Origin: a virus
DNA: 21,039 nt
Reading direction: 5' to 3' (one strand)
Virus record (IMG/VR): IMGVR_UViG_3300045988_137034
Span: 1 to 21,039 of that record
The stretch's first letter is position 1; every line of letters starts with the position of its first letter. The notes under the pieces were generated by a model that ran no database searches, was not told the DNA's origin, and saw only the letters and a list, made by a program, of their open reading frames with translations. Shown in pieces: positions 1,845 through 21,039 of the stretch. The translations under genes and the position numbers were made by a program.

Positions 1845-4800
1845 TTAAATAGTAATATTTTTAATAGTATCTGCATTTAAAGTAAGTTCTTCCTCATATT
1901 TAACAACACTTGATAATTGTACTTCAAAATGGAATGGAACTCCTTTTTGAACATATAAATAGTACTCTCCAGTTGTTGCATCACAATATGTACTATCTAC
2001 AAAGTTGTCATTATCTACATAGATATAAGGTTGTACATCTAATACTTTACCATCTGCATCTGTTACTTTTCCAGAAAGCTTTACTGATTTAGATGGATCA
2101 GGAGTTTGATAAAAATATACTTGTCCTAATCTTTCATAAATATCAGATTGAGCTACTAAACTTAAATAGAAGTTATCTTCAATATATTTAGGATTTTCAT
2201 TATATTCAATAGTCATAGTACTAATTCCAGGTAATCCTTCCATTGGTGAAATATTTGTAATCTTCAAATTATTATACCAACTAACTTTCCAAGGAACATT
2301 AGATTCTATAGTTACAATTTTACTTCCAGCTTCATACCCTACAGTAACTTCTGGGTCACTTACTTCTATGTATTTACCTAAAGTAGATACTCCTCCTATA
2401 TAATTATTGATGTCTTGAACTCTTATAAATTCACATCTAGTAGTTGCATCAGAATTAATATCATAAGCATCTATCTTATTTAATACCCAATAACTATCTT
2501 CAAAATAGTAAAACTGTCTTAACATATCAAAGTTTACTTGTAAATCATTTAATTTTACAAAACAAGTAACTTTCTTAGTATTAACATCAAATTGATCATT
2601 ATAGAACTCTTTCCAGAATTGAGAATAAATAACACTTTGTTCTGGATATGCAATTTTATCTATATAAATTTCTCTTGGTAATCCAAAATCCCAACTAGAT
2701 ATTACATAATTACTTGATATATTATATCTTATGAATTGTGGTAAAGAGGTTCTTTTAATTGCAATCTTAGCACCAGCTTCATTAGTTTCTCTAGTAGTAT
2801 ATAAATAGCAAGGTTCAGAATCATTTAATACAGACATTTCTGTAACATCATCAGTAATCCAATATGTAATAGGATTGCCATCAATATCTTTCATCTCTAC
2901 ATTGCCATTATAAAATAGTAATGTCGATTTAATTTCTTCTAAACTTTGCTCATCATTATCTAATGAATAGAAACAAGTCTTTGCAAATATATCATTACCA
3001 GGAACATCCCACCACTCTGTAGTCTTAGATGAATCAATGAAATTTACTCCATAAAGATCCTGATCGTTTGTTTTTCTTTCAGTAGACGTAGAATGGAATA
3101 ATTGATAAGTAATATTATCATTTAAGAAGCAAGGAACAGGTGAACTTGAACTATTAAAATAGTTTCTATAATACTTATCTACATCTCTTGCAGATATTAC
3201 ATTTTCATATAAGTTATCTGAGTATAAATCTGTATTATCACTATTAAAATTATATCCTGTATCTAATCTCTGTTGCCCATAAGTTATATCATACTGTTTA
3301 TTATATTTCTTTGCATAATACGTCTCAGGAGCTTCTTGTTTCATAGTATATCACTTCTTATCAAATAATAATGGATTAACTGAAAAATCTTTTGAATAAT
3401 CAATTCGTTTAGACCAATCTGTTATCTTATTTTTAAAGAAGTTGTTTCTGGTAAATATTCTAATAGTTTTGGAATCTATATCTTTAATAAAATATAATCC
3501 AAACATTTTAGCATAGCTAAGTAAATAATCCGCAGGTGTAGATTCTGTCTTTAAAAGCTTCTGCTTAGTAATAAGAGCATCAGATGTTACAGCCGATGGC
3601 CAACTTGCAATTAATGTATATTGATCTGAATCATATAAAAATTCAGACCATCCTGCTACTCTTGATGCAGTAACATTATTTGGGTTCATATTATCTGAAA
3701 TCCATAAAGCATCTTGATTATAGAGACTTTCTGTTCTTCTGGCAAATTGAATTGACACCCTTATCTTATTTACTTTTGGCATATCTTTAACCACAAATCT
3801 AAAGGTATTGCTTCCAGTATCACTTTTAAAATAGTACCTCTGCCCACTATCTTTAACAAAATGGCCATAAATAGCCTCAACAGGAGCATCAGTAAGAGGA
3901 TAATAATTAAACCAAGTAGATGGTCCAGCTTGAACTTGAGTATTAATCTTATTTGTAAAGTTATATAATGGAGAATAAGCTATAGGTCTAGATGGAACAG
4001 ATTCATCATCTGCATCATATACAAGTATCTGAACAGTTAAAGATGTTCTATATGGATCATTATGATACTCAATATTTCCCATTTTTCCATTGCGTACATA
4101 GGATAAATAAAGATTATTTGCAGAGGAACTAGCATTAGCATTAAAGAATACCTGAAAGTCCATTGAGATGTTTACTAAAGTATTAGCAGGCGTTGCAGAT
4201 AAATCAATAATATTTCCTTCTCCAGGAACTATCACCTCACTGCCATCAACAGAAGTATACCCTCAATTATATGAGGTTGTTGTTCCTCCAGGTTTTAATC
4301 CTACTCACCAGTTATCTGCTCCATATTTAATAAGCTTTGCATTCTCTTTAATAGAATCTGATTCTTCATCTTCACTACTTCCAAGTAATGGAAGAGCTAC
4401 AAATGATTTACTCCAATAAGGATTTGCATAATTAAAGAAGTAATCATCAAATATTACATCATATCCAGAATTCTCTTTTCTACAAATAGTTTCTATAAGC
4501 TTAGAAAGTTTTAACACTGGTCTTTGCATATAACTGCGTAAGTCTCTTATTTCCCATTCTGTATAAGCTCTATTTAATTGTGCTAAAGCATAACCATTAT
4601 ATGGAGTATATGTTGTTCCTCCATCGCTTGCAGATTTGGGAAATAGAGTGTCTCCTGCTGTATTTATTAAACAAGTTTCATTGTCAAAATTCTCATATAA
4701 ACCATTATATGCAGGAATAAATCCAACAAAGCTATCTAATGTAGTAAAGTCGCTATTCCAATAATTATTAAATGATTTATTTACAAAATCTTTATTAATA

Positions 4801-5294
4801 TAAAAATCCATTTCAGTATCAGCAGGTAAAACATTACCTTCCTCATCTGTAATAAAGTATTGTAAATCAGCAAGAGTTCTTAATGATCCATCTTCTTTAT
4901 ATTTAAGTCCATAGAAGAAATCTCCTAATCCTCCATATAAAGTAATATTATAAGTAATAACAGCTTGTTTTATAGATATACTATTTAATTGCATATATCC
5001 AGATTCAACTAAATAGTCATTATTATAGATTCCAAAATCAACTCGTTTTGAAGGATCAAAATATACTCCAGAGAAATTACCTTCTTTTATATGGAGAAAT
5101 CTATCTAACTTATAAATCTCTCCAAAAATCTTATTATTATTTTTGTCTCCTGGAATGCTTATAGTCTTACTGAATGAATTTTTTACTATTGTTGGATTCT
5201 GAAAATCTTCTACAGTATAAGTCATTGGTAATGATATGCCTTCAGAACAATGTACTTCTTTTCCTGCAATAAATAATTTAATATTCTTTCTCAT
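1845..5294 (-). CDS. Very large tail/baseplate-type structural protein (1149 codons) reconstituted from three standard-code ORFs via TGA=Trp
   Basis: Track ORFs 4305..5294, 3351..4235 and 1845..3344 share one frame. The junctions are single TGAs at 4305-4307, 4263-4265 and 3351-3353, with bridging peptides W-VGLKPGGTTTSYN-W-GYTSVDGSEV... and ...LLFDKK-W-YT-MKQEAP.... The first TAA/TAG in frame is TAA at 1845-1847. Size and position in the virion module suggest a tail fiber or baseplate role; the family is not recognised. Alternative model: if TGA 3351 terminates some of the time, there are two products, 3351..5294 and 1845..3344. Confidence 0.6.
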
Positions 5295-5296
5295 AA

Positions 5297-7477
5297 TTAT
5301 TTACGATAAGTATCTTGAGAAGTTTCTACATTAATTGTATAGTAGAACTTATTCTTACCTTGATTAGTATAAGTTTTATATTCACAATTTGTATCTGTAA
5401 TTAATACTGGAGTAATAGTATTATCTTTAAGATTATGCAAATATACTTTAGTACTCTCAATTAAATTAAACATCTTAGAAGCTTGAATATCATTTAAATA
5501 ACCAGTATAAAGAATCCAGCTTGAAGTTATAGTATTTAAATACTTATTCCTTGCAAATTCTTGAGATGTATTTAATACTTTGCGAGTATATGTTTCAGAT
5601 TTAATTTCATCAGTCTTTCTAACATTACCCTCAACAAGTAATGAATCCCATCCTCCTGCTGAATTAGTATAATATAATACATAATCTTTACCTGTGGTAT
5701 CTATATCATATCTAATCTGTCTATCACTAATATTTCCACCTTCTACAAATCCTACTATTAAATAGCTCCCACAAGGCCATAGTTTATTGCTTAAATCTTC
5801 TGTATATGTATATCCATTAATTCCAGAATTTAAACTAATATCTATAGCAGTTGATGTTCCATCTACATAAAAAAATCTATTAACAACTCCCGTTCCAGTT
5901 GGTAAAATTCAACTTGCTACTAAATATTGTCTTGGATCAACTAAACCAGTAATAGGATCACTTAACATAGTACCTTTAGTCAAATCTCTATCTTTATAAC
6001 TCCAGTCATTGAAGAAAGTAATTGGTTTTTCATTTCCACTAGATGTTATCAAAGTAAATGGTTTCAAATATTCTGGAGATACTATTGTTTTTGAAGTATT
6101 AAATATAATTCCATTAGATAGATAATTCTCAGCAACATTATTTAATAAAAACTCTACTCTATCAGTTTCAGGATATTTATAAGCCTTGCCAGCATAAACC
6201 ATATCTCCTGCATAATCTAGATGATATTCAATAAAATCTGAACTGATTATCTCATTCCAAACATAATCTTTCCAAATAGGAGATATATCAGATTTAACAG
6301 ATTGTGTAATATTAATAGATAAATTAATAATACTTGAACTATTCTTTATAACAGATACTCCAATAGTTGCTTGTCTAGAAGATAAACCTGAATTTTCTGC
6401 AATGTTCAAACTAATAGTTGCTACACCTTGAGGATTCACAGAGAACTTCTGACCACTAATCCAACCTACAGGAATGCTAAATACAACATCATCTAAGTTG
6501 TTTGAGCCTGTACCAGTTATATTTAATGTAGATGCAGTTCAACTTACTTCATAATTAGTATTAGGAATCATTAAAGATGTTGCAGCTTGTTTAATTGGAA
6601 CTGTAGCTTCAAGATTATAACCTCCAGAAGTTGTTGCAGTAACCATTGCACTAAACTCTAAATTATTAGTAGTTTTATTCTCTGGAACAGCTAATACAAA
6701 ATAGTTATCAACAATATCCTTTTTAATATTACTAGCTTGAGGGCAGGTAACATTAAATGAGGTAATTGTTTCTTCTGCTTTAGTTGTACTTAAATGGAAT
6801 TCTTCAGTAACAAAAGCAGATGCTCCATAAGTTCCAGATGAAGGAGTTACTACTAGCTTTAAATCTTCTGGAGTATTACTTTTTTCAATAGTAAAGCCAT
6901 AACTATAAGAAATAAACTTATTAGTTTCATAATAAGCTCCTAATTGGATAGTTCCAGTTAAATCTGTATTCCATTGAGTATTAGCTCTTACTGTGAATTT
7001 AAACTTAATAGAGCAAGAATCCCAATCCAGAACTTCCATATTAACTAAAGCTGTAGCATTAACAACTGCTGCATCTCATTTAATAATATCTGATCTATTT
7101 AATATATACTCTACTGTATATTCTCCACCAGTATTTGGTACTTTAATGGTGCCATTAGCAGGATAATATCCAGGAGCTTTACTATGTAAATTAATTGGTA
7201 AATCTTCCCCTAATAAAGCAGTAGTAATACCTCTAGGATAAAAATGAAATACAGTAGAAGAATCAGTAGTTATTGTTGTAGGAGATAAAAATTGTATTGT
7301 ACATCCTTCTTTACTTGGATCCTGTATAGTTACATTTAAAGGCCCTTCTTCAGTATAATCATCTCCCCAAGTCCAATAATCATATTCTCCAGTAATTCCC
7401 CATCCAGGATTATTCCATTTAACAGGAAAACTCCTTGATGCATTATATATTCCTAATTTACTTGGTATAAATGCCAT
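5297..7477 (-). CDS. Large tail/surface protein (726 codons) with Ig-like/BACON-like beta-sandwich repeats; 3 in-frame TGA
   Basis: Track ORFs 7076..7477, 6539..7039 and 5909..6439, plus an untracked segment 5297..5908, share one frame. They are joined by TGAs at 7076-7078, 6539-6541 and 5909-5911 (...SDIIK-W-DAAVVNATALVNMEVLDW..., ...NYEVS-W-TASTLNITGTG..., ...YLVAS-W-ILPTGTGVVNRFFYVDG...). The gene ends ...YRK-TAA at 5297-5299. Strings such as SIKFKFTVRANTQWNTD and ATISLNIAENSGLSSRQATIGV resemble BACON/Ig-like repeat signatures (recollection only, not searched). Confidence 0.65.
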
Positions 7478-8874: not shown

Positions 8875-10121
8875 TATTTAATTGCAATATTATAAGTTCC
8901 TTTATTTGTATTTAAAGCATCATAAGCTAACATTAAAGATATACAAGTATCATCATTAAAGCCAGATGGAGCATTATATGATACATTTCCAGTCTTTGGA
9001 TTATAACTGGCTTCATATAGTCTTAATTCATTTAATAGTTTATCATCCTTTAAAATACCAATCTTTTCGTTTTCTAATGCCGCTTGTAGCTTATTTACAA
9101 TAGCTGCCTTAGACTTATTAGTAGTTAAGAATCTTATAATCCTGATTTTTAGATTCTTCCGAACTAACATATCATAAAACACTGAACCTATTGAGTTTTG
9201 TTCGACTTGAACTATCTTTATAAATCCCTGATACTCAGTAAATATATTTGTCAGTAAATCAACTTGTTCTGTTGGAGTTTTGTCGTTAAAATACTTTATA
9301 AAGACCATCTGCCCATTTTCATTTAAAGCTGTAATACAAGTATAGTCTTTACCAGAACCAGTAGCCCAGTCAACTCCAATATAGAGATTATGATATTCAG
9401 GTTTTTTATCAATTATACAGTTAGCTATATTATTAAATAGGCAACCATCATCATCTGCAAACTCTCCAAGATATTCAGTTCTAAATTTATTTTTGGAGGT
9501 TGTAAGGCGATACATTTCAAGTTTATCCTCACTTAACAGCATAGAAGTATCTTCTAATGCTCAATCAAAGGATTGATAATATTTACTAAAATTACCATCA
9601 AAGCCCTTTTTAAAGCATTCATAAAAGAATCCTTCTCTAAACCTTGGAGTACTAATTATAAGTATCGGAGCATTCCATACATCAGTGGTAGGCTTAATAA
9701 TTTCAAATACTTCATCTTTAAGATAAGCTGCCTCATCAAGTACTAATAATCCACTGACTGAGAATCCTCGTAATGAATCCATTTGTTCTCCAGATCTAAA
9801 TAGTATAGAACTGCCATTATTAAACTCTAATTCTAATAAGGTTTCATTCTTTCTCTTTAATATATCAGAGTCTATAACAGCTTGTACAAGTTCTTTAAAT
9901 ACCTTTCTAGATTGTCCAAGAGTTGGTTCAACTATACAATTAACACTCCCAGGATAATTTATAGCGAATCTCAATAATTCATTTTCTGCCAAGAACGATT
10001 TACCTACCTGTCTCTTTGCTTTAATTGTAAAGATTTTACCAGACCTATATGAGTCATTCATAGCAGTATGTACCTTTAATTGATAGATAAATGGGCTATA
10101 TCCTTTATATATTTTTGTCAT
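8874..10121 (-). CDS. terL: Terminase large subunit, reconstituted across one in-frame TGA (9561-9563)
   Basis: Track ORFs 9561..10157 and 8874..9542 are in frame: ...KYYQSFD-W-ALEDTS-MLLSEDKLEMY.... Walker A AKRQVGKS, Walker B LLVLDEAA, and nuclease-domain acidic motifs IGVDWATGSGKDY and FNDDTCISL. The start is taken at MTKIYKGY (10121, 17-nt overlap with terS); ATG 10157 is the alternative. Confidence 0.85.
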
Positions 10122-10557
10122 TGTTAATTGGATCTCCAAATTTAAACTGGACTTCATTATTCTGAATAGCTACAATAGTCTCAGGTTGATTTAATCCAAA
10201 CATACTATTTATAGTCTTAATAATCTCATTTGCAGCTCTAATATCTCCCTTACTAATAGCAGTATCCAGTAATGATTCCAATCTTGATAATTGTATATGT
10301 CTAAGGTTTTTTATAAGGTTATCATTCTTTTCAGCAATTATCTTATAAGCTTCTCCAATATATCTTGCAGCTGTTGATTGGCTTACATTATATTTACTTT
10401 GAAGTTCTTCACTTACTTTATTCCTTGACCATCCTTTGTTAAATAACCTTGCAGCATAAAGATATTTAGTCTTTACTTCGTCTATTTGTTCCTTTTCTAC
10501 CTCTGCCTTTTTCGGTCTCCCTGTTTTCTTCGGCAGTTCCTGATTCTTTACTTTCAT
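10105..10557 (-). CDS. terS: Terminase small subunit candidate (HTH DNA-binding protein directly upstream of terL)
   Basis: 150 aa. Basic N-terminus (KKTGRPKK), HTH-like WSRNKVSEELQSKYNVSQSTAARYIGEAY, helical oligomerisation-like C-terminal part. Overlaps the terL start. Confidence 0.6.
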   Translation of the reverse strand: MKVKNQELPKKTGRPKKAEVEKEQIDEVKTKYLYAARLFNKGWSRNKVSEELQSKYNVSQSTAARYIGEAYKIIAEKNDNLIKNLRHIQLSRLESLLDTAISKGDIRAANEIIKTINSMFGLNQPETIVAIQNNEVQFKFGDPINNDKNI

Positions 10558-10801
10558 TTTCCTTTAGTTTTTCTTGATATTCAAAATAGATTGGGGCAAT
10601 CCTCTTTATAAGATTAAGTATACAAGTAGCACAAGCTACGCTCATTCTATATTCTTGTTCAATTAAACATTCATAAATCTCTTTAAGCTTAATTACATCC
10701 TGCTTTTGTACATTTCTGCAATAATTAGACTTAGTTGCAGTTACAAATCTATCTTCAAATCCTCTTAAATATTTAAACTGCTCTTCTGTTAATTGTTTCA
10801 T
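10466..10801 (-). CDS. Hypothetical Cys-containing small protein (111 aa); its 3' 92 nt overlap terS in another frame
   Basis: Intact ORF ending in TAA at 10466-10468. The C-terminal tail ENESKESGTAEENRETEKGRGRKGTNRRSKD is the alternate frame of the purine-rich terS 5' end, so the functional 3' end is uncertain. Confidence 0.45.
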   Translation of the reverse strand: MKQLTEEQFKYLRGFEDRFVTATKSNYCRNVQKQDVIKLKEIYECLIEQEYRMSVACATCILNLIKRIAPIYFEYQEKLKENESKESGTAEENRETEKGRGRKGTNRRSKD

Positions 10802-10890
10802 AATTAGCGCTTTTTAGTATAAGTAAATATAGAAATTAACTTTCCATTCTTGTAATGATAAATAACTTCTGTTTCCATAAAATATAATTT

Positions 10891-11220
10891 TTAATTAATA
10901 AGTTTGTATATAACATCTATCAACTTAGTAGATGCATCTTTTAATAATATCATAATATCTTTAATAATTGGAGTCATAAATGCTAATAATGCAATATATC
11001 CAACCATTAAAATTGAAAATTGACTTGTAATAAGAATATATAGTAATCCAATTCACCAAGTCATACACAAACTGCAATCTAAAGGTTTGAGTCTTCAATC
11101 TTCTTTATATGGTATACCTTTAAATAGCATTTTTCAAATACTATGTTTAAAACTATCTAAAGCTCCAGATAAATCAATTATAAAAACTATTATTGCAGTT
11201 ATTATAAATAATTCTAACAT
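10891..11220 (-). CDS. Small multi-pass membrane protein (109 aa) with a C-x-x-C...WW motif; 3 in-frame TGA
   Basis: From ATG 11220..11218 to TAA 10893..10891, every triplet was checked. TGAs at 11134-11136, 11095-11097 and 11053-11055. Translation: MLELFIITAIIVFIIDLSGALDSFKHSI-W-KMLFKGIPYKED-W-RLKPLDCSLCMTW-W-IGLLYILITSQFSILMVGYIALLAFMTPI.... It resembles the KP-x-x-C-x-x-C-x-x-W membrane family (DUF1360-like, recollection only). Confidence 0.55.
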
Positions 11221-11699
11221 AATCTTCATACATAATTATAACCTGTTTTATATTTGCCATATAAACAAGCTCGAATTGAATAATCACACTTACCTAAAGC
11301 TTCCGCAGCTTCTTTAATAGAATTATACTTTTTAACTAGAGTTCCGTTAAGATCATATTGAGCTACAGGTTTTGAAAGGTAAGAAGAAATCTTTTTATTT
11401 CTAGTTCCATAATTTGTATTATATTTCCTAGTACATCATTCTAGATTTTCAACTCTATTGTTTAACTTATTTTCGTCAATATGGTTTACTTCTGGTAAAT
11501 TATATATATTTGGTATAAATGTTTCAGCTACTAATCTATGTATAGACTTCATTTTAACTTTTCCATTTTTTCATAGTCCTACTGCTAAGTAGTTATTTCT
11601 AATAGTAGGTTTAATAAATTTATTTGTCCTTATACTATAAACTTCTCCGATATTATTTACTTTATAAAGACCTTCATAATTAGCTATATCCTTCCACAT
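11214..11699 (-). CDS. HNH homing endonuclease (161 aa); 3 in-frame TGA
   Basis: MWKDIANYEGLYKVNNIGEVYS (NUMOD4-like N-terminus), IHRLVAETF, EVNHIDENKLNNRVENLE-W-CTRKYN (HNH_3-type motif, with W encoded by TGA at 11436-11438), and a C-terminal HTH-like region. Other TGAs at 11571-11573 and 11226-11228. Ends in TAG at 11214-11216. The start overlaps the upstream gene by 16 nt. Confidence 0.85.
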
Positions 11700-11938
11700 A
11701 TTTTATTTCTAATATTACTTATACACCTTGCTATGGTAGTATGACTAATTCCTAATATTCTTCCAACTTCTCTATAACTGTGATATTCAGCATATAATAT
11801 GATTACTGTCTTATCTGCCTTATTAAGCTCAAGCCATTTTGGATATATACTTAATAATCTGTCATCTGTATTCGTAAACATATCATAGTCTATTTCATAC
11901 TCATTAAGTAAATCATCAATATTAATCTTCCTTTTCAT
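11684..11938 (-). CDS. Sigma-70 region-4-like / LuxR-type HTH transcription regulator (84 aa)
   Basis: ...DKTVIILYAEYHSYREVGRILGISHTTIARCISNIRNKI matches the region-4 HTH pattern. Intact standard ORF ending in TAG. Both ends are overlapped by HNH genes. Confidence 0.55.
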   Translation of the reverse strand: MKRKINIDDLLNEYEIDYDMFTNTDDRLLSIYPKWLELNKADKTVIILYAEYHSYREVGRILGISHTTIARCISNIRNKICGRI

Positions 11939-12437
11939 AATACTTTCATTTAAATCCTTTGGAAGTTAATTGTCTTCCTTTTAAACAAGCAATAATGTTT
12001 GATATAACAAATCCATTTCTCTTTAATTCATTTATTGAAGGTCATACTTTAATAATATTGTTATCTGTATCTAACTGCACAATTCGCTTGGAGCTTTTAT
12101 TATTCTGGCAGTTTTTAACAAAATTATTAATTCTATTGCCGTAAGTAAGATTATAAGACCTTGTACATCATTCTAAGTTTTCTATAACATTATTGCATTT
12201 ATTTTCATCAATATGATTTATTTCACAATAACTGTTAGGATTTGAAAGAAACGCTTCTGCTACTAGTCGATGTATATAAAAATTTTTTCTACCTTGTTTA
12301 TTATATAAACAAACAAAAGAATATCCACTATTGGATTGCATAGGTTTAATAACTCCTCTAACACTTTTAACTCTGCCTAAAGTGCTAATCTGGTAGTTCG
12401 GGTAATTCGTTATATTCTTCCAGATCTCCATCATCAT
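11922..12437 (-). CDS. HNH homing endonuclease (171 aa); 3 in-frame TGA
   Basis: Track ORF 12168..12437 stops at NVIENLE-TGA. The frame continues -W-CTRSYNLTYGNRINNF...IIKV-W-PSINELKRNGF...KGFK-W-KYYEKED-TAA. TGAs at 12168-12170, 12042-12044 and 11946-11948. IHRLVAEAF and EINHIDENKCNN are paralogous to the 11214..11699 copy. Confidence 0.85.
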
Positions 12438-13460: not shown

Positions 13461-14207
13461 TTAAAATTCAAAAATATCTTTATTGTCGTATTCAATATCT
13501 TGTTTTCTGTCTAATCCAAATAAACCAGCAAGTATGTCATTATAGATATTATTAGCTTTTGGACTTAAATAAAGCTTATTCTTTACAAAATAAACGGTTT
13601 GCTTATATAATTTATTATCAGAGGGAGTAGAAAGCACATTCTTAATAGTTCTAATATTCTGCTCATTTAAATGCACTACTTCATTCTTAATAAACTCTTC
13701 ATATCTTATCTGATAACCATCTTCTACTTTATCTAAGTAAAATCCATACTCTTTTAGCTTATTAAGCTTATTATTTAATAGATTATATGTAATATCTAAT
13801 TCTTTAGCTATATCCTTCTTATTTAACTTAATTTTTAAAGTATCATCAAATGCCAAACTTCTAATTCTTAAGGCAAATCCCAATAAATTTAGATCCTTAT
13901 CAATATTATTAATTACAAAATCTAATTTAACCATAAAAAATGTATTTAGTATTGATTTATAGGTATTAGTCTTTATAACATTACCATTATCTTTAATTAT
14001 AACCTTAGTAGAGCAGTCTAATAACTCTGCTTTATAAAGATGACTATTCATCTTTTTAATATAATCTACAGAGCATTTTAAATACTTTGCAAAGTAATCT
14101 CTTGTATATACTTTATTTTGAAGCTGTGTATAAGATTGTAAAGCCATATAATATGCTTCTTTGTCATTCAAATCCTTTACTCGTTTATCAATTTTTAAAT
14201 AAATCAT
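13461..14207 (-). CDS. Winged-HTH DNA-binding protein, replication-initiator-like candidate (248 aa); no TGA and no Trp at all
   Basis: Intact ORF ending in TAA. HTH-like KKDIAKELDITYNLLNNKLNKLKEYGF. It sits directly beside the iteron-like repeat cluster at 14254-14326. The function is inferred from context only. Confidence 0.4.
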   Translation of the reverse strand: MIYLKIDKRVKDLNDKEAYYMALQSYTQLQNKVYTRDYFAKYLKCSVDYIKKMNSHLYKAELLDCSTKVIIKDNGNVIKTNTYKSILNTFFMVKLDFVINNIDKDLNLLGFALRIRSLAFDDTLKIKLNKKDIAKELDITYNLLNNKLNKLKEYGFYLDKVEDGYQIRYEEFIKNEVVHLNEQNIRTIKNVLSTPSDNKLYKQTVYFVKNKLYLSPKANNIYNDILAGLFGLDRKQDIEYDNKDIFEF

Positions 14208-14543: not shown

Positions 14544-15329
14544 ATGAATTGGAAATCAACAAACATTAAAGGATATTCAGTTAGTGATGAAGGTCAAATA
14601 AAGAACGAACTAACAGGAAAAGTATTATCTCAGTTTAAGAATAATATGGGGTATTATTTAGTAAGCATACAAGATAAAAAGTATCTTGTACATAGATTAG
14701 TAGCAGAGGCGTTTTTAAATAAACCTAATAAATGTAATATAGTAGAACATAAAGATGATGATCCCACAAATAATTGTGTAGATAATCTTATGTGAAGTAC
14801 TCAGAAATTGAATTTAAATAGGCAAGGAAGGCTTGAAAAGTTAAAAAGGCATTATCAGTCCAATGAATGAAAAGAAGCTAGAAAAAAGGCTTTAGAAACA
14901 ATGAAAGCAAATGGATTTAAAAAGACTAAATCAGATAAGCAAAAGGCTAAAGAAGCGGCCAGATTAGATAGAATATCTAAAGAAAGAGAGAATATAAGAC
15001 CTACTCTCGACCAACAATATGATGCGTTTATTAATCCTTTAATTGATTTACTTAAATCTGGATATAGTTTAAAGAGAGCTGCACAATATTTTGGAATAAA
15101 TGATACTACTGGCATTACTTATTTTTCTAAAAGATATTATGAAGAAACAGGAATTAAACTTATTACATATAAGATTAAAAAATCGTCGTTTTCAAATGCA
15201 GAAAAATTAATGAATAAAATTAAAGAATTATATAATCAAGGTTTAACTGTAGAGGAAATAAGTGAAGAAGTAAATAGATCAATTAATATTGTTAATAAGT
15301 ATATAAAACTATGGAAGATTCATATTTAA
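14544..15329 (+). CDS. HNH homing endonuclease with extended C-terminal HTH region (261 aa); 2 in-frame TGA
   Basis: Track ORFs 14544..14795 and 14901..15329 are in frame (offset 357 nt). The junction reads ...NNCVDNLM-W-STQKLNLNRQGRLEKLKRHYQSNE-W-KEARKKALETMKANG..., with TGAs at 14793-14795 and 14868-14870. LVHRLVAEAF and VEHKDDDPTNNCVDNLMW form the HNH_3-type core. HTH-like SLKRAAQYFGIN and LTVEEISEEVNRSINIV. Ends in TAA at 15327-15329. Confidence 0.8.
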
Positions 15330-15493
15330 ATAGAATTGCGGATATTAAAGAAACAATTAAACAAACTGAAGAGTATATTAAAGAATTGGATAAATGAATA
15401 CTCAAATGTAAAGAAACTACTAAAAGATTTGGTGATATTATAGATAAAGTATTAAAAGATAAAGATTATATGTCTATTTCTAAATTTGATTAA
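15311..15493 (+). CDS. Small hypothetical protein (60 aa); 1 in-frame TGA
   Basis: ATG 15311 to TAA 15491-15493; TGA at 15395-15397 (…KELDK-W-ILKCKE…). Helical and charged. Overlaps the HNH 3' end by 19 nt. Confidence 0.35.
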
Positions 15494-15781: not shown

Positions 15782-15785
15782 ATGA

Positions 15786-15813
15786 AAATAGGAGGGTATA
15801 TGCCCTCCTATTT
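15786..15813. terminator. Bidirectional intrinsic terminator between convergent transcription units
   Basis: AAATAGGAGGG-tatatg-CCCTCCTATTT: perfect 11-bp arms at 15786-15796 and 15803-15813. It lies 4 nt after the plus-strand TAA (15781) and 4 nt after the minus-strand TAA (15818). Confidence 0.75.
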
Positions 15814-15817
15814 CTGT

Positions 15818-16408
15818 TTAAGCGTATTTTCATTTAAATCCTTTTACTTTATAGCCTTCTCTAATTGCTTTAGAAATAGAATTTTTATGAACTCCAACAT
15901 CTAAAGAAGCACTAACAGCACAGTCATATTCTTTAATAAGAATATCGTCTTTATACGCACCTACTTTTTTAGCTCTAGGATTATTGCCAAAAGAATTATT
16001 TAAATAACTCAAATCTTTACCTTTATGACTATTACTCATCTTTTTTCGAGTTTCTTCTGATGGATGTCTTCCAATACATTTGGCTCTAATCTTATCTTTT
16101 CTTTCCTGAGTGAATGCAATACCTAAGGTGCCGTCACCTCCATCTGTAGCATTATATCCATATTTGGGATCTCTAGTATTATATTTATGAATAAGAATTT
16201 TTTCTAAAGTCTTGGCACAAGGTTCTGGCAAATTATCTTTAATTATAATATGTTCAAAATTATCCCATCCATATTTTGTTATAGCGTTTCAAAACGGCTG
16301 TTTTCTATAACCAAGACCATTTGCTCATCGTATTTCTGGCTTCTTACAAGTAATGCCAATATATTTCTTACCATTAATCTTGTTTAAATGAATATATATA
16401 CTATACAT
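15818..16408 (-). CDS. GIY-YIG homing endonuclease (196 aa); 3 in-frame TGA
   Basis: MYSIYIHLNKINGKKYIGITCKKPEIR-W-ANGLGYRKQPF-W-NAITKYGWDNFEHIIIKDNLPEPCAK...KVKGFK-W-KYA-TAA. TGAs at 16325-16327, 16289-16291 and 15830-15832. GIY (IYIH) and YIG motifs, the R-W and KYGWDNF motifs, and NUMOD-like HxSEETRKKMS are present. The track ORF 15830..16231 is only the middle piece. The ATG at 16408 overlaps the endolysin stop. Confidence 0.85.
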
Positions 16409-16850
16409 ACAAATTACCTTTTTTTCTTCGTTGTAGTCCTTTAATACTATATAAAGCAATATGCACTCACTGAGATGTACGACTTTTTTCTATAAAGCAT
16501 TCGTCAAAATTATAATTCTCTATTTCATCTGTTATTCATACTTGGAATATCTTCATTTGACCGTTACTTGGAATTATATCTGCTGCATATCCTGTTAGAT
16601 GGGCAGATGTCAAAGATCCTCCTACAGCTTTATTAAGCTCATTACATCTATAACCTGAATTCACACTTATTGCTGGATTCCCCAACCGATTAACATCACA
16701 ATACTCTGCCCAATCACTTCTTAATGGATCTAAAAGTTTCTCGACTAACTCTATAAGGTGTTCAGTAATCTCTTTATTTGGAGTATTATCTATCTTCTTA
16801 ATAGAAGCTGTATCAGATCTTGTTAATTCACTAATAGTAAAATATTTCAT
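16401..16850 (-). CDS. Endolysin, zinc peptidase M15 family (149 aa); 2 in-frame TGA
   Basis: SGYRCNELNKAVGGSLTSAHLTGYAADI carries the H-x6-D zinc motif. The track ORF stops at ...MKIFQV-TGA (16536-16538). The frame continues -W-ITDEIENYNFDECFIEKSRTSQ-W-VHIALYSIKG...-TAG (16401-16403), with the second TGA at 16467-16469. W-V-H supplies the expected C-terminal His ligand region of this family. Confidence 0.8.
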
Positions 16851-17011
16851 TATTTAATAATATCTTTAAGCATAACATAACGGTAAAATAAATGACATCC
16901 TGCACCAAGTGCTATGAGTACTAATGTAATCCAAAATGGAATTACTTTTACCATTAAACATACTAAGATTATAATTACTATTGCTATTAAATATTTCATC
17001 CAATATTTCAT
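16850..17011 (-). CDS. Holin candidate (53 aa, two TM helices)
   Basis: MKYWMKYLIAIVIIILVCLMVKVIPFWITLVLIALGAGCHLFYRYVMLKDIIK. Its TAA overlaps the endolysin ATG as TAATG. No TGA. It is below the ORF-track size cutoff. Confidence 0.6.
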   Translation of the reverse strand: MKYWMKYLIAIVIIILVCLMVKVIPFWITLVLIALGAGCHLFYRYVMLKDIIK

Positions 17012-17014
17012 AAC

Positions 17015-17668
17015 TTATTTATTTAAAATTATACTTACTTTAATTCCTGCATCTCTTAGTTTTACTCAAGTATCAACTGGCATCTCATTATCACAATAAG
17101 ATAATCCTAAAACTCCAATATCCCTATCTTCTGACTTTAAATAGAATATTGCAATCTTATTAACATCATTAGATTTAAATGTATAATACATTCTCCTATC
17201 TAATTCCTTTATATCTTCAACATCTCCCAATCATCCTCCTTTTTTAGATGTTTCCAATATAAATAAATAATCAGATAATAGGAAATCTTTATAGTGTTTA
17301 GAAACTGAAGCAACTCCAGGTTCTGTTTCTTCACTATTCATAATCCCATAAGTAAATGGAAGTCCTCCTAATCCTGAAGTGCCATTATGATACTCAATAA
17401 CTCAAGCTCTATCTGCATTCGTATCATTTAAAAGATCTTTAAGGATATATCTAACCTTAAGATCTGCTTCTTGTCTTATTAATTGATTAGTATTATGGAC
17501 CGTTTTTATATAGTTTGTAACTTTATCATATATTATTCCTGGATTAGTACTTATAATTATTACATAAGAAATAAATATAAATCCAAATCCACCTTTAATT
17601 ATTTTTCACAGTCCATATTTATCTACTCATTCTAATACCTTTCCAAACCAGTTTAATTTATTTTCCAT
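17015..17668 (-). CDS. N-terminally membrane-anchored protein (217 aa) heading the lysis cassette; 5 in-frame TGA, invisible in the standard-code track
   Basis: From ATG 17668..17666 (TAATG overlap with the upstream GIY-YIG stop) to TAA 17017..17015, every triplet was checked. TGAs at 17627-17629, 17606-17608, 17402-17404, 17231-17233 and 17066-17068. MENKLNWFGKVLE-W-VDKYGL-W-KIIKGGFGFIFISYVIIISTNPG.... Function unknown. Confidence 0.5.
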
Positions 17669-18252
17669 TACATATCATACTTAAAGGTATATCCTTTAGT
17701 TTGTTTTTGTCTGCCACTTAAAACTGAAGATATTAAAGAAGAAGTTATGTTTAACTCTCTTGCTGCTGATCTTATACTTTTATAAGATTTTATAAATCTT
17801 CCATCTAAAGTGTATTGACTAATAGCTTTAGTTCCATAGTTTTGATTTTTCTTGCGTATTAATTCCTTAGTTTCTTCTGAATGATGCTTCCCATAAAATG
17901 GATTTTTATTTCCTATTCTAGTTTTAGCAAATTCAGAAATAATAACTTTAGTTTCATTAGAAACTATCGGATGATTACTTGTGTCAGTTCTATTATAACC
18001 AAATCTTAAATCTGTAGTATTATAATAGCTAAAGAAGTATTTTTCAAGATATTTCATTTCCGATTCACTATTTACATAATAAATAGTGTGTTTAATATTG
18101 TTTCAACCGTACTTTTTAATTGGTCTGTAAACAAATTGATCTTTATATCCTTCTCCACCTCTTCATCTACTATTTACTGACTGAGTGGTTAATCCAACAT
18201 ATCTTTTACCATTTGGAAAAGTATGAATATAAACTACATACTGTCTTGACAT
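17668..18252 (-). CDS. GIY-YIG homing endonuclease (194 aa); 2 in-frame TGA
   Basis: MSRQYVVYIHTFPNGKRYVGLTTQSVNSR-W-RGGEGYKDQFVYRPIKKYG-W-NNIKHTIYYVNSESEMKYLEKYFF.... TGAs at 18163-18165 and 18103-18105. NUMOD-like GKHHSEETKELIRKK and a C-terminal HTH. The ATG at 18252 overlaps the upstream gene by 19 nt. Confidence 0.85.
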
Positions 18253-18660: not shown

Positions 18661-19152
18661 TTAAATGTATTTAAAAGTTAATTTATTCTTATATTTTCTA
18701 CCTGTTTTTAAACAGTAACGTATACTTTTAGAGTCTATATTTAACCTACGAGCACATTCATTAATAGATGGATATTCTATATCATTACATAATATTTTAT
18801 GAGATTGCTTATAAATTGAATACCTAGTATTATATGAAATAGTACACCATTCTAGATTACATACTCGATCGTCATTCTTTACTTCATTTTTATGATTAAC
18901 AACTGGATAGTTAAATGGATTCTCTATAAAAGCATATGCTACTAATCTACATACTCTATAATAGTAGGGTTTACTATCTTTCATTAAAGTAACCCACTTA
19001 TATCCATCTTTATCAATGTTAGGTTTTAAAATACGCTCATTTACTGGGCAAATACACCCATTCTTACTAAGTCTAGCTCTTGCAACTGATTTAACTTCTC
19101 CAGAATCACTCACTTGGTAATAACCTTCAAAGTCTTTAATATCTTTCCACAT
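18661..19152 (-). CDS. HNH homing endonuclease (163 aa), the only endonuclease here with no TGA
   Basis: MWKDIKDFEGYYQVSDSGEVKS (NUMOD4-like), VCRLVAYAF, VVNHKNEVKNDDRVCNLEWCTISYN (all three Trp encoded by TGG), and a C-terminal HTH INECARRLNIDSKSIRYCL. Confidence 0.85.
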   Translation of the reverse strand: MWKDIKDFEGYYQVSDSGEVKSVARARLSKNGCICPVNERILKPNIDKDGYKWVTLMKDSKPYYYRVCRLVAYAFIENPFNYPVVNHKNEVKNDDRVCNLEWCTISYNTRYSIYKQSHKILCNDIEYPSINECARRLNIDSKSIRYCLKTGRKYKNKLTFKYI

Positions 19153-19154
19153 AA

Positions 19155-19817
19155 TTACTTTTTCTTATTCTTATTTGAACTTGGAAAATCATATCTAGAT
19201 CTTAGAGAATTATTATATAGTCCCTTCGAGCGTATACCTCCAAGCCAGATACCACAACTACTTGAACTGTATAAATTAGGATACATATCTTTAAGAGGTT
19301 TATATGAATATAATTCAGGAAAATCATTATAATATGTAATAACCCAATCTTGTAGTCTTGCTTTAAAGAAATCTGCTTTATCTCTATAATATTTCTTAAT
19401 AAGATTAACTTGACTTGCATCTGCAGCTATATCTTTCTCATCATCAGTCCTCATAACTCCAAAATTACTAAGTTTAAAAGAGATAGGAATAGTAATTTCA
19501 CTTAATACTTGATAAAGTAAATAAGGCTGAATATAGTAATCTAATAATTCTTTATATCTATGATTTTCTGGATCATCTATAGATGTTGGATCATAAATAG
19601 GAGGTTCTATTGGATGAACTGGTTTATTTGGATCTTTCCAATCAATTACTAATTTCTGAATCTTCTCTAAGAGCTTAGTTCCAATTAATGACTGAAGCTC
19701 AATATCTTGTGCAAGTTTGATTGCAGACTGAAGATATTTACCAGAAACATTATTATCTAAATTAGATTCTGATTTTATATAATCTTCAGATATTAATAGT
19801 ACATTTCTATATTCCAT
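19155..19817 (-). CDS. Head-tail connector/adaptor-like protein (220 aa)
   Basis: The N-terminal pattern LISEDYIKSESNLDNNVSGKYLQSAIKLAQDIELQSLIG resembles gp6-like connector N-termini, and the gene lies downstream of the portal. Motif-level call only. Confidence 0.4.
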   Translation of the reverse strand: MEYRNVLLISEDYIKSESNLDNNVSGKYLQSAIKLAQDIELQSLIGTKLLEKIQKLVIDWKDPNKPVHPIEPPIYDPTSIDDPENHRYKELLDYYIQPYLLYQVLSEITIPISFKLSNFGVMRTDDEKDIAADASQVNLIKKYYRDKADFFKARLQDWVITYYNDFPELYSYKPLKDMYPNLYSSSSCGIWLGGIRSKGLYNNSLRSRYDFPSSNKNKKK

Positions 19818-20460
19818 AATAATATTTATAATTTTTGCAGGGTTTATTTTTTCTACAAGATCTAGATATACTAGAAGAATCTACATTATTCTTCTCTCCA
19901 GCTTCCTTAGCTGATTTATACTCACAAATAAAATTACCATCTAAATCATACTTATATACTTTTTTGCACTGACGTTCTGAAATTAGTTGTTTTTCTTTAT
20001 CTGAGAGTTTCATACCTTTATTTCAAGGAGTTTTGCCTAATCTTGCCTCCCTCATTTTACGCTTGCTTTCATCTGAATGCTGTTTACCATAAAATGAGTT
20101 ATTTTCTCCTGATCTTATAATTCTAAGACTATCTTTATAATCTTGTGAAAAAGAATATCCACAAGTACCGTCTCCTCCATCAGTTAAATTATACCCATAT
20201 TTTGGATTTCTAGTATTATACTTATAAATCAGAATCTTTTCTAAAGTCTTAGCACAAGCTTCTGGAAGATTATCTCTAATTATAATATGCTCAAAATTAT
20301 CTCAACCATATTTTTTAATTGCTCTGCTAAAATAAAGATTATTCTTGTAACCTTGACCTTTAGTTCCCCATCTATTATTTAAAGTAAGTGATGTTATTCC
20401 AAAATATAATTTATTATCAGCTATATTCTTATGGCAGTACACTGTATAATTATTCAACAT
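19807..20460 (-). CDS. GIY-YIG homing endonuclease (217 aa); 2 in-frame TGA
   Basis: MLNNYTVYCHKNIADNKLYFGITSLTLNNRWGTKGQGYKNNLYFSRAIKKYG-W-DNFEHIIIRDNLPEACAKTLEKILIYKYNTRNPKYGYNLTDGGDGT...GKTP-W-NKGMKLSDKEK.... TGAs at 20302-20304 and 20023-20025. The track shows only the last 68 aa. The ATG at 20460 overlaps the portal stop by 11 nt. Confidence 0.85.
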
Positions 20461-21039
20461 TTTCTGCATTTTCTGACATTCCTTTTGGAGTTAAACTAAA
20501 TGGTTCAATAGTAATACTATTCTTAATGCCGAAGATTTTATCAAATGAGTCACAAATTTCTGATTGTATTGGGCGTACAAAAGTACGATTATATAGCTTA
20601 AATGCTTCATTAAACTCATTTTCATTAAATCCTGAGCTATAGTTTAAACCGAACAACGAAGGATTAGCTCGGAAGGCACAGAATATTTGATCTCTTGTTC
20701 TTTCAGATAATGATTGATATTTTTCATCAAAATCATCAGAATCTAACCTTTCAATTGTGGTCTTATTTGCCTCATCTGCATTATATGAAATCAATATTCT
20801 GCCAGCATTCTGATAACCAGAGAACTTCTCATTAATATTCCTCTCAATCTCCTCTCTAATTTCATCTGTAGGCTCTCCATTATTAAAGTTAATAATAAGA
20901 TTGCCCATAAATCCATTATTGATATTGTTTAAATGGAACTCATTAATATTTTTCTCAGTTTCACAAGATAGAATAGCAGCTCCGTAAACAGGAATAGGAT
21001 ATACTCCTCTTGTTATATAACCTTTATTATAAAATATAC
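20450..21039 (-). CDS. Portal protein, C-terminal part (N-terminus beyond the window end)
   Basis: The frame is open from 21039. ...GVYPIPVYGAAILSCETEKNINEFHLNNINNGFMGNLIINFNNGEPTDEIREEIERNINEKFSGYQNAGRILISY... and ...FNENEFNEAFKLYNRTFVRPIQ... match the usual portal core/clip-region pattern as I remember it. Ends in TAA at 20450-20452. Confidence 0.65.
   Translation of the reverse strand, partial: IFYNKGYITRGVYPIPVYGAAILSCETEKNINEFHLNNINNGFMGNLIINFNNGEPTDEIREEIERNINEKFSGYQNAGRILISYNADEANKTTIERLDSDDFDEKYQSLSERTRDQIFCAFRANPSLFGLNYSSGFNENEFNEAFKLYNRTFVRPIQSEICDSFDKIFGIKNSITIEPFSLTPKGMSENAENVE

Follow-up and report, generated by a model that had tools for sequence, protein, structure and literature searches.

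Results

Lysis cassette of the window

The DNA analysed here, called the window, is the 21,039-nucleotide (nt) stretch of the IMG/VR virus record IMGVR_UViG_3300045988_137034, and gene positions are window coordinates unless another contig is named. Its GC content is 28%, and the minus strand holds nearly all genes. The subject of the study is a lysis cassette on the minus strand, in which a gene of a 217-amino-acid (aa) protein is followed by a 53-aa gene and an endolysin gene. The 217-aa stop and the 53-aa start are 3 nt apart, and the 53-aa stop and the endolysin start share the sequence TAATG. It is reasonably probable that these genes form the lysis cassette of a tailed gut phage of ~30 kb, placed where its long one-directional array ends, and that TGA stands for Trp throughout this genome. 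The features of the cassette are the following:

17015..17668, minus strand: gene of the 217-aa membrane protein (family F17), five in-frame TGA codons
17627..17629, minus strand: TGA codon 14 of the 217-aa gene, upstream of the membrane segment
17606..17608, 17402..17404 and 17231..17233, minus strand: TGA codons 21, 89 and 146 of the 217-aa gene
17066..17068, minus strand: TGA codon 201, the last in-frame TGA of the 217-aa gene
16850..17011, minus strand: gene of the 53-aa protein, no TGA
16401..16850, minus strand: endolysin gene, 149 codons, two in-frame TGA codons, stop codon TAG at 16401..16403
16599..16601 and 16578..16580, minus strand: codons of His84 and Asp91 of the endolysin
16536..16538, minus strand: first endolysin TGA, codon 105, in a variable column (W or F)
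16467..16469, minus strand: second endolysin TGA, codon 128, at the invariant Trp of a W-x-H motif
16461..16463, minus strand: codon of His130, the presumed third zinc ligand

Related IMG/VR contigs, dozens in each case, were collected via the terminase, portal and tape-measure proteins. Twelve complete contigs of 26-32 kb were tiled, seven of which carry identical 55-99-nt terminal overlaps, a signature of circular assembly. The allele counts given below refer to 28 distinct cassette sequences and, for the 53-aa gene, to 13 alleles.

TGA as a tryptophan codon

With the standard code the open reading frames (ORFs) of the window were fragmented, and reading TGA as a sense codon merged them, resulting for example in an ORF of 1149 aa at 1845..5294. 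The gain in ORF length obtained in a control with recoded TAG was far smaller than that with recoded TGA. The identity of the residue was shown by two paralogous genes, in which KKYG[TGA]DNFEH (19807..20469) corresponds to TKYG[TGG]DNFEH (15818..16408), and codon 128 of the endolysin places a TGA where all 26 full-length homologs have Trp. The endolysin and 217-aa ORFs were free of TAA and TAG over 149 and 217 codons, respectively, in DNA of 28% GC, and they are conserved in 28 distinct alleles; the recoding pattern is not a product of chance.

TGA was present in 17 of the 30 called ORFs of the window. Among them are six of the seven homing endonuclease genes and the genes of the tape measure, of the two large tail proteins and of the large terminase (at codon 199), and a helix-turn-helix (HTH)/sigma-like regulator was also TGA-bearing (10 TGA : 3 TGG). 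In the 12 complete relatives, 40-60% of the genes carried TGA, and the ratio TGA/(TGA+TGG) was 0.33-0.46 per genome.

Distribution of TGA among genes

For the comparison between genes, 123 conserved Trp columns were scored, so that related genomes were not counted as independent, and the Mann-Whitney test was applied at the column level. The mean TGA fraction over the 123 columns was 0.36, while Lys, Glu and Gln columns were ~0.7-0.75 A-ending. The fraction of the 217-aa and endolysin genes was 0.56 vs 0.34 for the rest (p = 0.11) and that of all three lysis genes 0.46 vs 0.35 (p = 0.44), both comparisons being made over 9-11 columns and having low power. The head module (10 columns) gave 0.00 vs 0.39 for the rest (p = 0.0003) and the F32 family, described below (5 columns), 0.00 vs 0.38 (p = 0.013). 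The significant TGA signals are depletions and not an enrichment of the lysis genes.

The head module, consisting of an XkdF-type protease, scaffold-like, capsid-like and F26 genes, contained no TGA among 114 Trp codons in the 12 complete genomes; in the complete relative c094921 (L073/L017) it is located at 27141..30431, a part of the genome beyond the window. The Trp columns of the large tail genes were mostly TGA/TGG polymorphic. Altogether, the TGA/TGG pattern resembles that of synonymous codons drifting into one another, with selection against TGA in some genes. A leaky 3' context of the in-frame TGAs was not seen, as TGA-C was depleted and not favoured.

A TGA richness matching that of the 217-aa gene was determined for the homing endonucleases, one tail-fibre-like family and a 112-aa multi-pass membrane protein, the gene of which (10891..11229, minus strand) lies upstream of the small terminase. 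The initial annotation of the window had described the 217-aa gene as the densest in TGA. This holds for the count of five, whereas the highest density belongs to the 112-aa gene with 3 TGA in 112 codons, i.e. 2.7% compared with 2.3% in the 217-aa gene; the family of the former has 37 TGA : 13 TGG. The lysis-specific lock or timer proposed in the same annotation was not supported by the analysis: TGA is found genome-wide, the lysis genes are not significantly enriched, the capsid module is TGA-free and no switch was seen. Since the terminase, the tail proteins and the tape measure are equally null without UGA-to-Trp decoding, the dependence on this decoding is genome-wide and does not amount to a lock on lysis.

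Endolysin and its zinc site

Under standard decoding the endolysin is a product of 104 aa that ends with ...MKIFQV at the TGA of codon 105, exactly where the stop had been annotated (16536). It had also been proposed that the third zinc ligand lies beyond the second TGA and is lost on standard decoding. This was borne out by His130, an invariant residue and the presumed ligand.

The endolysin matched Pfam PF08291 Peptidase_M15_3 with an E-value of 2.8e-14 and 53.6 bits (cut-off 23.2) over profile positions 2-107 of 108, and this match was obtained only with both TGAs read through. The E-value with the endolysin family phrog_894 was 6.1e-27. H84 and D91 align to H154 and D161 of 1LBU, a Streptomyces zinc DD-carboxypeptidase with a zinc site of H154, D161 and H197 (PMC5025407). 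The H-x6-D ... H zinc triad is present in the endolysin, and H84, D91, E121, W128 and H130 were invariant in the 26 full-length homologs; the spacing and the invariance point to His130 as the third zinc ligand. The structure model used was that of an 83%-identical database homolog, with a predicted local distance difference test (pLDDT) score of 96.5. Its best match in the PDB was 1LBU (E 1.9e-5, probability 1.0); VanY/LdcB and hedgehog N-domains came next. By sequence and model, the endolysin is a single-domain zinc peptidase of the Peptidase_M15_3 family with the LAS fold, and it is predicted to degrade peptidoglycan. In the homolog model, products ending at residue 104 or 127 are without His130 and two or three predicted beta-strands.

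Among the 28 alleles, W47 was encoded by TGG in 26 and never by TGA, with Phe in the other 2. The W105 position was TGA in 2, TGG in 17 and Phe in 6 alleles, and W128 was TGA in 23, TGG in 4 and another codon in 1. Four of the 28 endolysin alleles were TGA-free. The codon-105 'lock' of the window endolysin is a rare variant.

The 217-aa protein

The 217-aa gene carries five TGAs, the first at codon 14, as had been annotated. Without read-through its product ends at residue 13, ahead of the membrane segment. Codon 14 was TGA in 24/28 and TGG in 4/28 alleles, and it was the first TGA of the gene in 21/28. TGA occupied codon 201 in 28/28, codons 89 and 146 in 19/28 and codon 21 in 7/28 alleles. 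Over the six Trp sites of the gene, the presence of TGA ranged from 3/28 up to 28/28 alleles, and each allele had 1-6 TGAs.

Hydropathy analysis resulted in one hydrophobic segment at about residues 20-47. The plan of the protein comprises a short N-terminal segment, this hydrophobic segment, a long helix and a GAF-like C-terminal domain. The AlphaFold model of a 96%-identical database homolog (pLDDT 76.8) consists of N-terminal helices, the long helix and an alpha/beta domain; the loop GLGGLPF, invariant in the family, had a pLDDT below 50. The alpha/beta domain gave 203 GAF-fold matches in the PDB at E <=0.001, with template modelling scores (TM-scores) up to 0.77 (target-normalised). In BFVD the model matched phage proteins annotated as 'GAF domain-containing' and also proteins annotated as Holin, Class III holin and T holin lysis mediator (E 4e-5 to 5e-4). 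At the sequence level, no Pfam family was matched at E <=0.01, with the GAF families and Phage_holin_T included in the search, and the match in PHROG was weak and to a family of unknown function. A search of PDB sequences with the family profile (E <=10) gave nothing relevant and did not reach the solved T4 T.

A word-indexed search returned 21 close homologs, and a profile search (E <=0.001) 1,154 cluster representatives, most of them 220-250 aa long and matched from end to end. In the Nonlabens phage P12024S, which uses the standard code, the homolog is located directly upstream of a phrog_894 M15 endolysin. In two loci of Bacteroidales metagenome-assembled genomes (MAGs), L224 and L225, it is upstream of a GH108 + PG_binding_3 endolysin, which is followed by a lipoprotein-like gene. 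The family precedes an endolysin in 3/3 informative contexts, all of them Bacteroidota-linked; the contexts of five distant members (P0142, P0145, P0150, P0165, P0200), mostly short contigs with neighbours without annotation, were uninformative. A scan of viral contigs with the family alignment returned the same lineage only, and a more diverse alignment was too divergent for the search. The pairing of the family with two unrelated endolysin types is as expected of a holin-class protein. By its modelled architecture and its context, the 217-aa protein is a holin-class candidate, apparently of the T type. What is new here is this T4-T-like plan with a GAF-like domain, together with the position of the family ahead of endolysins in standard-code Bacteroidota phages too.

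A reverse transcriptase gene (RVT_1) was noted at 1102..2196 of L224 and L225, ahead of the holin-like/GH108 cassette by two called ORFs, and L225 has a tRNA-Asp just beyond it. The RVT_1 gene may belong to a diversity-generating retroelement in a tRNA-integrated prophage.

The 53-aa protein

The 53-aa protein is hydrophobic at about residues 1-43, with two putative transmembrane segments. Both Trp codons of the gene were TGG in the 13/13 alleles, with the exception of one Cys, and never TGA. The protein had no match in Pfam or PHROG and is restricted to this phage lineage. It may be a small holin, an antiholin or an accessory protein. The initial annotation had named it a holin free of TGA: the absence of TGA was confirmed, whereas the holin label is unverified and the 217-aa protein is the better-supported holin-class candidate.

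Neighbouring genes and genome layout

The cassette is flanked by the following features:

17668..18252, minus strand: GIY-YIG/NUMOD homing endonuclease gene, two TGAs, with a TAATG overlap with the 217-aa gene directly downstream
15818..16408, minus strand: GIY-YIG homing endonuclease gene, three TGAs, directly downstream of the endolysin gene and overlapping its end
15785..15814, minus strand: hairpin resembling a terminator (12-bp stem, T-run), located where the minus-strand lysis unit and the plus-strand unit converge

The hairpin is probably a bidirectional terminator that closes both the plus-strand unit and, converging on it, the long minus-strand unit with the lysis cassette at its end. 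The endonuclease gene at 17668..18252 is inserted exactly between a 141-aa gene and the 217-aa gene and was found only in the window genome and L001; most relatives are without it at this site. In total, the window contains seven homing endonuclease genes, four HNH and three GIY-YIG (11214..11699, 11922..12437, 14544..15329 on the plus strand, 15818..16408, 17668..18252, 18661..19152 and 19807..20469), and their presence differs between close relatives. The portal-adjacent GIY-YIG gene is intact in the window (19807..20469, 220 aa) and split into two ORFs in c094921 (5795..6271 and 6241..6447), which suggests a selfish element in decay.

The gene array of c094921 begins with small and regulatory genes, followed by the small and large terminase, neck and tail genes and the tape measure. 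Its second part contains the head module, fibre-like genes, the portal, a DUF6712 gene, the 141-aa gene and the lysis cassette. The promoter-proximal genes of this long unit and the portal gene are TGA-bearing. A short operon on the opposite strand comprises three small ORFs, the T5orf172 gene and the gene of F32, a DExH-like protein of 572 aa. F32 (9954..11672 in c094921) had 0 TGA : 50 TGG and was present in 10 relatives and not in the window. In its place, the window has a 248-aa ORF at 13461..14207 (minus strand) with weak HTH hits and no Trp codons, suggesting a swapped replication or regulation module.

According to the initial annotation, an equal TGA density in early genes would speak against a timer. 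The result for the putatively early operon was mixed: F32 is TGA-free, whereas TGA was detected at codon 22 of F29 (53-60 aa; window 15311..15493, plus strand) in 11/11 copies, and the T5orf172 gene had 18 TGA : 12 TGG, the expression timing of these genes being putative. Either F29 is a putatively early gene with a conserved recoded codon, or its real product is a peptide of 21 aa.

No GenBank phage was matched by the whole window in a megablast search, and the terminase is <30% identical to that of any cultured phage. Distant relatives, with 40-50% portal or terminase identity, have differing codes. L060 (IMGVR_UViG_3300021254_000412) is TAG-recoded, with a 972-aa ORF containing 12 in-frame TAGs. 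In L035 the recoded codon is TGA, and the standard code is used by L058, L059, L061 (52-58% GC) and L171.

Search for decoding machinery

ARAGORN was applied to the window, about 60 loci and 15 assemblies, seven of the latter with circular-type end overlaps, and detected neither tRNA nor tmRNA. Rfam gave nothing in the window at gathering thresholds and nothing in one complete relative at E <=1. A Pfam scan of about 40 proteins, covering most but not all ORFs of a complete relative, found no release factor, tRNA synthetase (including that for Trp) or deaminase. As no suppressor tRNA, release-factor or Trp-tRNA-synthetase domain was detected, no code switch is visible.

Relaxed ARAGORN settings reported a 98-nt 'tRNA' at 19603..19700 (plus strand), antisense in the DUF6712 gene, which was rejected for its broken stems. 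Its 'anticodon' is CCA in the window genome and TCA in seven relatives; the hit is spurious, and these three letters simply complement a Trp codon that is polymorphic for TGG/TGA. Such an antisense artefact could mislead automated suppressor searches.

Host

The conserved zinc peptidoglycan peptidase indicates a walled host. Shine-Dalgarno-like motifs were at the background level of 11-14%, and A was found at position -3 in 61-75% of the genes. Translation-start signals of this kind, with scarce Shine-Dalgarno motifs and A at -3, have been described for Bacteroidetes (PMC6847099). The Bacteroidota promoter motif TAnnTTTG (36 found, 32 +/- 6 expected) and sigma-70-like sites (69 found, 85 +/- 8 expected) were not enriched; promoters therefore provide no clue to the host. 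The 217-aa family occurs in a Flavobacteriia phage and in the two Bacteroidales MAGs, the loci of which are intact under code 11.

Stop-codon-recoded phages have been reported with 26-71% of their genes recoded on standard-code hosts and with ~90% where the host shares the code (Borges et al., 10.1101/2021.08.26.457843); the 40-60% determined here are therefore within the standard-code-host range. In addition, the mixed codes of the distant relatives fit phage-driven recoding more easily than a host with code 4. The host is probably a standard-code Bacteroidales bacterium.

The search of 185,579 species genomes with the large terminase returned no prophage copy. A contig of 148,631 bp (IMGVR_UViG_3300045988_175865; L022/L082/L146) was considered as a prophage with host flank and turned out to be a phage concatenation: positions 116,530-118,785 are identical to the last 2,256 bp, so that a 29.8-kb phage genome is read 1.07 times, and the upstream DNA encodes other TGA-recoded, collagen-like tail-fibre proteins. 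Long contigs with distant endolysin homologs were likewise rejected as host chromosomes, one being a jumbo phage and the other phage- or prophage-like.

Discussion

In our judgement TGA is, with fair probability, an ordinary Trp codon of the whole genome that is costly or inefficient to decode, and the lysis genes depend on it yet are not singled out. As the host is probably standard-code, the phage does depend on the decoding of UGA: if UGA were not read as Trp, it would be unable to package DNA, build tails or lyse the cell. The cost of decoding would be reflected in the use of TGA, which at ~36% of conserved Trp columns is half as frequent as the A/T bias predicts (~72% A-ending use for Lys, Glu and Gln). 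TGA would drift to and from TGG in presumed low-copy proteins, such as the holin-like protein, endolysin, homing endonucleases, tail fibres and terminase, and would be purged from the presumed high-copy proteins of the capsid module.

A more specific version is speculative and seems rather improbable to us, namely that this ~30-kb lineage, with no tRNA of its own, decodes UGA on standard-code Bacteroidales by a protein-based mechanism, with the TGA count per gene as a dose setter. A small phage protein might antagonise RF2, so that the host tRNA-Trp(CCA) reads UGA, or the anticodon of tRNA-Trp might be edited or modified. With incomplete decoding, the T-holin-like protein, having 1-6 TGAs per allele, would accumulate slowly and set the lysis time, and the TGA-free capsid proteins would be made at the full rate.

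The lysis timer of the initial annotation supposes a standard-code host in which early genes are translated normally, UGA suppression is established late and the holin-like protein and endolysin are made only then, so that the time of lysis is set. A host of this kind is indeed probable, no allele of the 217-aa gene lacks TGA, the first being at codon 14 in 21/28, and the endolysin TGA of 23/28 alleles stands just ahead of the catalytic His. The timer would also agree with the 0 TGA : 50 TGG of F32, with a proportion of recoded genes inside the range of Borges et al. for standard-code hosts, and with the strongly recoded lysis-cassette membrane proteins and recoded homing endonucleases found by the same authors. 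However, no component of the clock was seen, as the 12 complete genomes are without a suppressor tRNA and the scanned proteins without a release-factor or tryptophanyl-tRNA synthetase domain. Because the capsid module, which should be late and abundant, is TGA-free, TGA is not a simple mark of late genes; at the other end, the promoter-proximal genes, the HTH/sigma-like regulator, the terminase and the portal are TGA-bearing, as are F29 and the T5orf172 gene of the putatively early operon. The lysis genes themselves are not significantly enriched in TGA (p = 0.11 and 0.44), and 4/28 endolysin alleles and every allele of the 53-aa gene are TGA-free. We regard the timer as unlikely.

A host of code 4 would read TGA as Trp, in which case the TGAs would be plain sense codons with nothing locked or timed. 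The complete genomes without a suppressor tRNA or a visible code-change gene, the TGAs in most functional modules on both strands and the many sites polymorphic for TGA/TGG, as for synonymous codons, are in accordance with such a host. Mollicutes are the main known free-living code-4 group, but they are wall-less, and the zinc peptidoglycan peptidase, pointing to a walled host, excludes them. The lack of Shine-Dalgarno use with A at -3 leads to Bacteroidota, and the 217-aa family is found in standard-code Bacteroidales MAGs. Neither the use of TGA at half of the A/T-bias prediction, with none in the capsid genes, nor the 40-60% of recoded genes instead of ~90% for a host-matched code would be expected, and sister lineages are TAG-recoded or standard-code. 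A code-4 host is thus quite doubtful. To the idea that the TGAs are inactivating mutations or assembly errors and the lysis genes pseudogenes, next to no credence can be given: the ORFs are broken under code 11, but the same sites recur in 28 distinct alleles from independent assemblies, at conserved Trp positions with invariant catalytic residues beyond them, TAA/TAG interruptions are absent and the pattern is genome-wide. Conservation has already refuted this idea.

Several points weigh against an ordinary but costly Trp codon that does not single out the lysis genes. The capsid-like gene has a G-ending bias, with an A-ending fraction of 0.31-0.40 vs ~0.75 elsewhere, and part of its TGA avoidance may therefore be ordinary codon optimisation. 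The tail protein of one relative contains 10 TGAs and would need fairly efficient UGA decoding. The 217-aa gene has the top TGA count of the window (5), and this, together with the presence of TGA in all its 28 alleles, would be compatible with a selected lock. Codon patterns are the only source from which inefficient UGA decoding is deduced. Neither a prophage copy nor a CRISPR link nor a host flank turned up that would tie the phage to its host. Finally, the holin role of the 217-aa protein is derived from synteny and fold likeness, and there is no sequence tie to Phage_holin_T or T4 T.

The TGA-free capsid and the lysis genes that are not singled out argue for effects of dose or efficiency over a simple early/late switch. 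A small, common and tRNA-less recoded lineage with 12 complete genomes is a tractable case for UGA decoding without a phage tRNA. To our knowledge, the lysis systems of Bacteroidota phages are poorly characterised, and the T4-T-like membrane proteins with a GAF fold, which make up more than 1,000 clusters, are a candidate holin class for them.

Comparison with known systems

The M15A peptidase endolysin of the Burkholderia phage ST79 is experimentally muralytic on Gram-negative peptidoglycan (PMC5025407). The enzymes of ST79 and 1LBU share with the window endolysin a single PF08291 domain of ~130-150 aa, the zinc triad and the LAS fold, the identity to 1LBU being ~20% over the aligned fold. 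In contrast to them, the window endolysin writes two of its Trp codons as TGA.

Holin T of phage T4 is 218 aa long and thus similar in length to the 217-aa protein. It has one N-terminal transmembrane segment and a large C-terminal soluble domain (PMC11413866). In both proteins a short segment at the N-terminus is followed by a single transmembrane segment, and the C-terminal domain is large and globular; the 217-aa gene adjoins that of the endolysin in its cassette. There is no sequence-level relationship, however, and the C-terminal domain of the 217-aa protein is GAF-like with an invariant GLPF loop. In comparison with the T4 lysis-inhibition system, no RI-type antiholin was identified in the window, where the 53-aa protein with two putative membrane segments is found instead. 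In the Nonlabens phage P12024S and in L224 and L225, the homolog directly precedes an endolysin as in the window. These loci differ in using the standard code, and the identity of their homologs to the 217-aa protein is 26-35%; L224 and L225 moreover have the GH108 muramidase and the lipoprotein-like gene where the window has the M15 endolysin.

Stop-codon recoding as a lysis timer has already been proposed, and recoded lysis cassettes in TGA-recoded phages have been published (Borges et al., bioRxiv 10.1101/2021.08.26.457843; Nat Microbiol 2022). The timer, if true here, would be one further example of that lysis-gating idea, and the catalytic-site argument illustrates such cassettes clearly. 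The code-4 gut phages of Borges et al. resemble the window phage in low GC, a probably standard-code host, TGA at Trp positions of structural and lysis genes, a heavily recoded lysis-cassette membrane protein, recoded homing endonucleases and close relatives with other codes. About 65% of their code-4 phages had no identifiable suppressor (10.1101/2021.08.26.457843), and it is this question of decoding that the present lineage may help to approach. The window lineage is distinguished from those phages by the genome size, which is ~30 kb compared with ~127 kb for the Agate phages and larger sizes for most other code-4 clades, and by 12 complete genomes without a suppressor tRNA or a detectable release-factor or tryptophanyl-tRNA synthetase domain. 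It differs from them also in that its lysis genes are not statistically singled out and its capsid module is strictly TGA-free.

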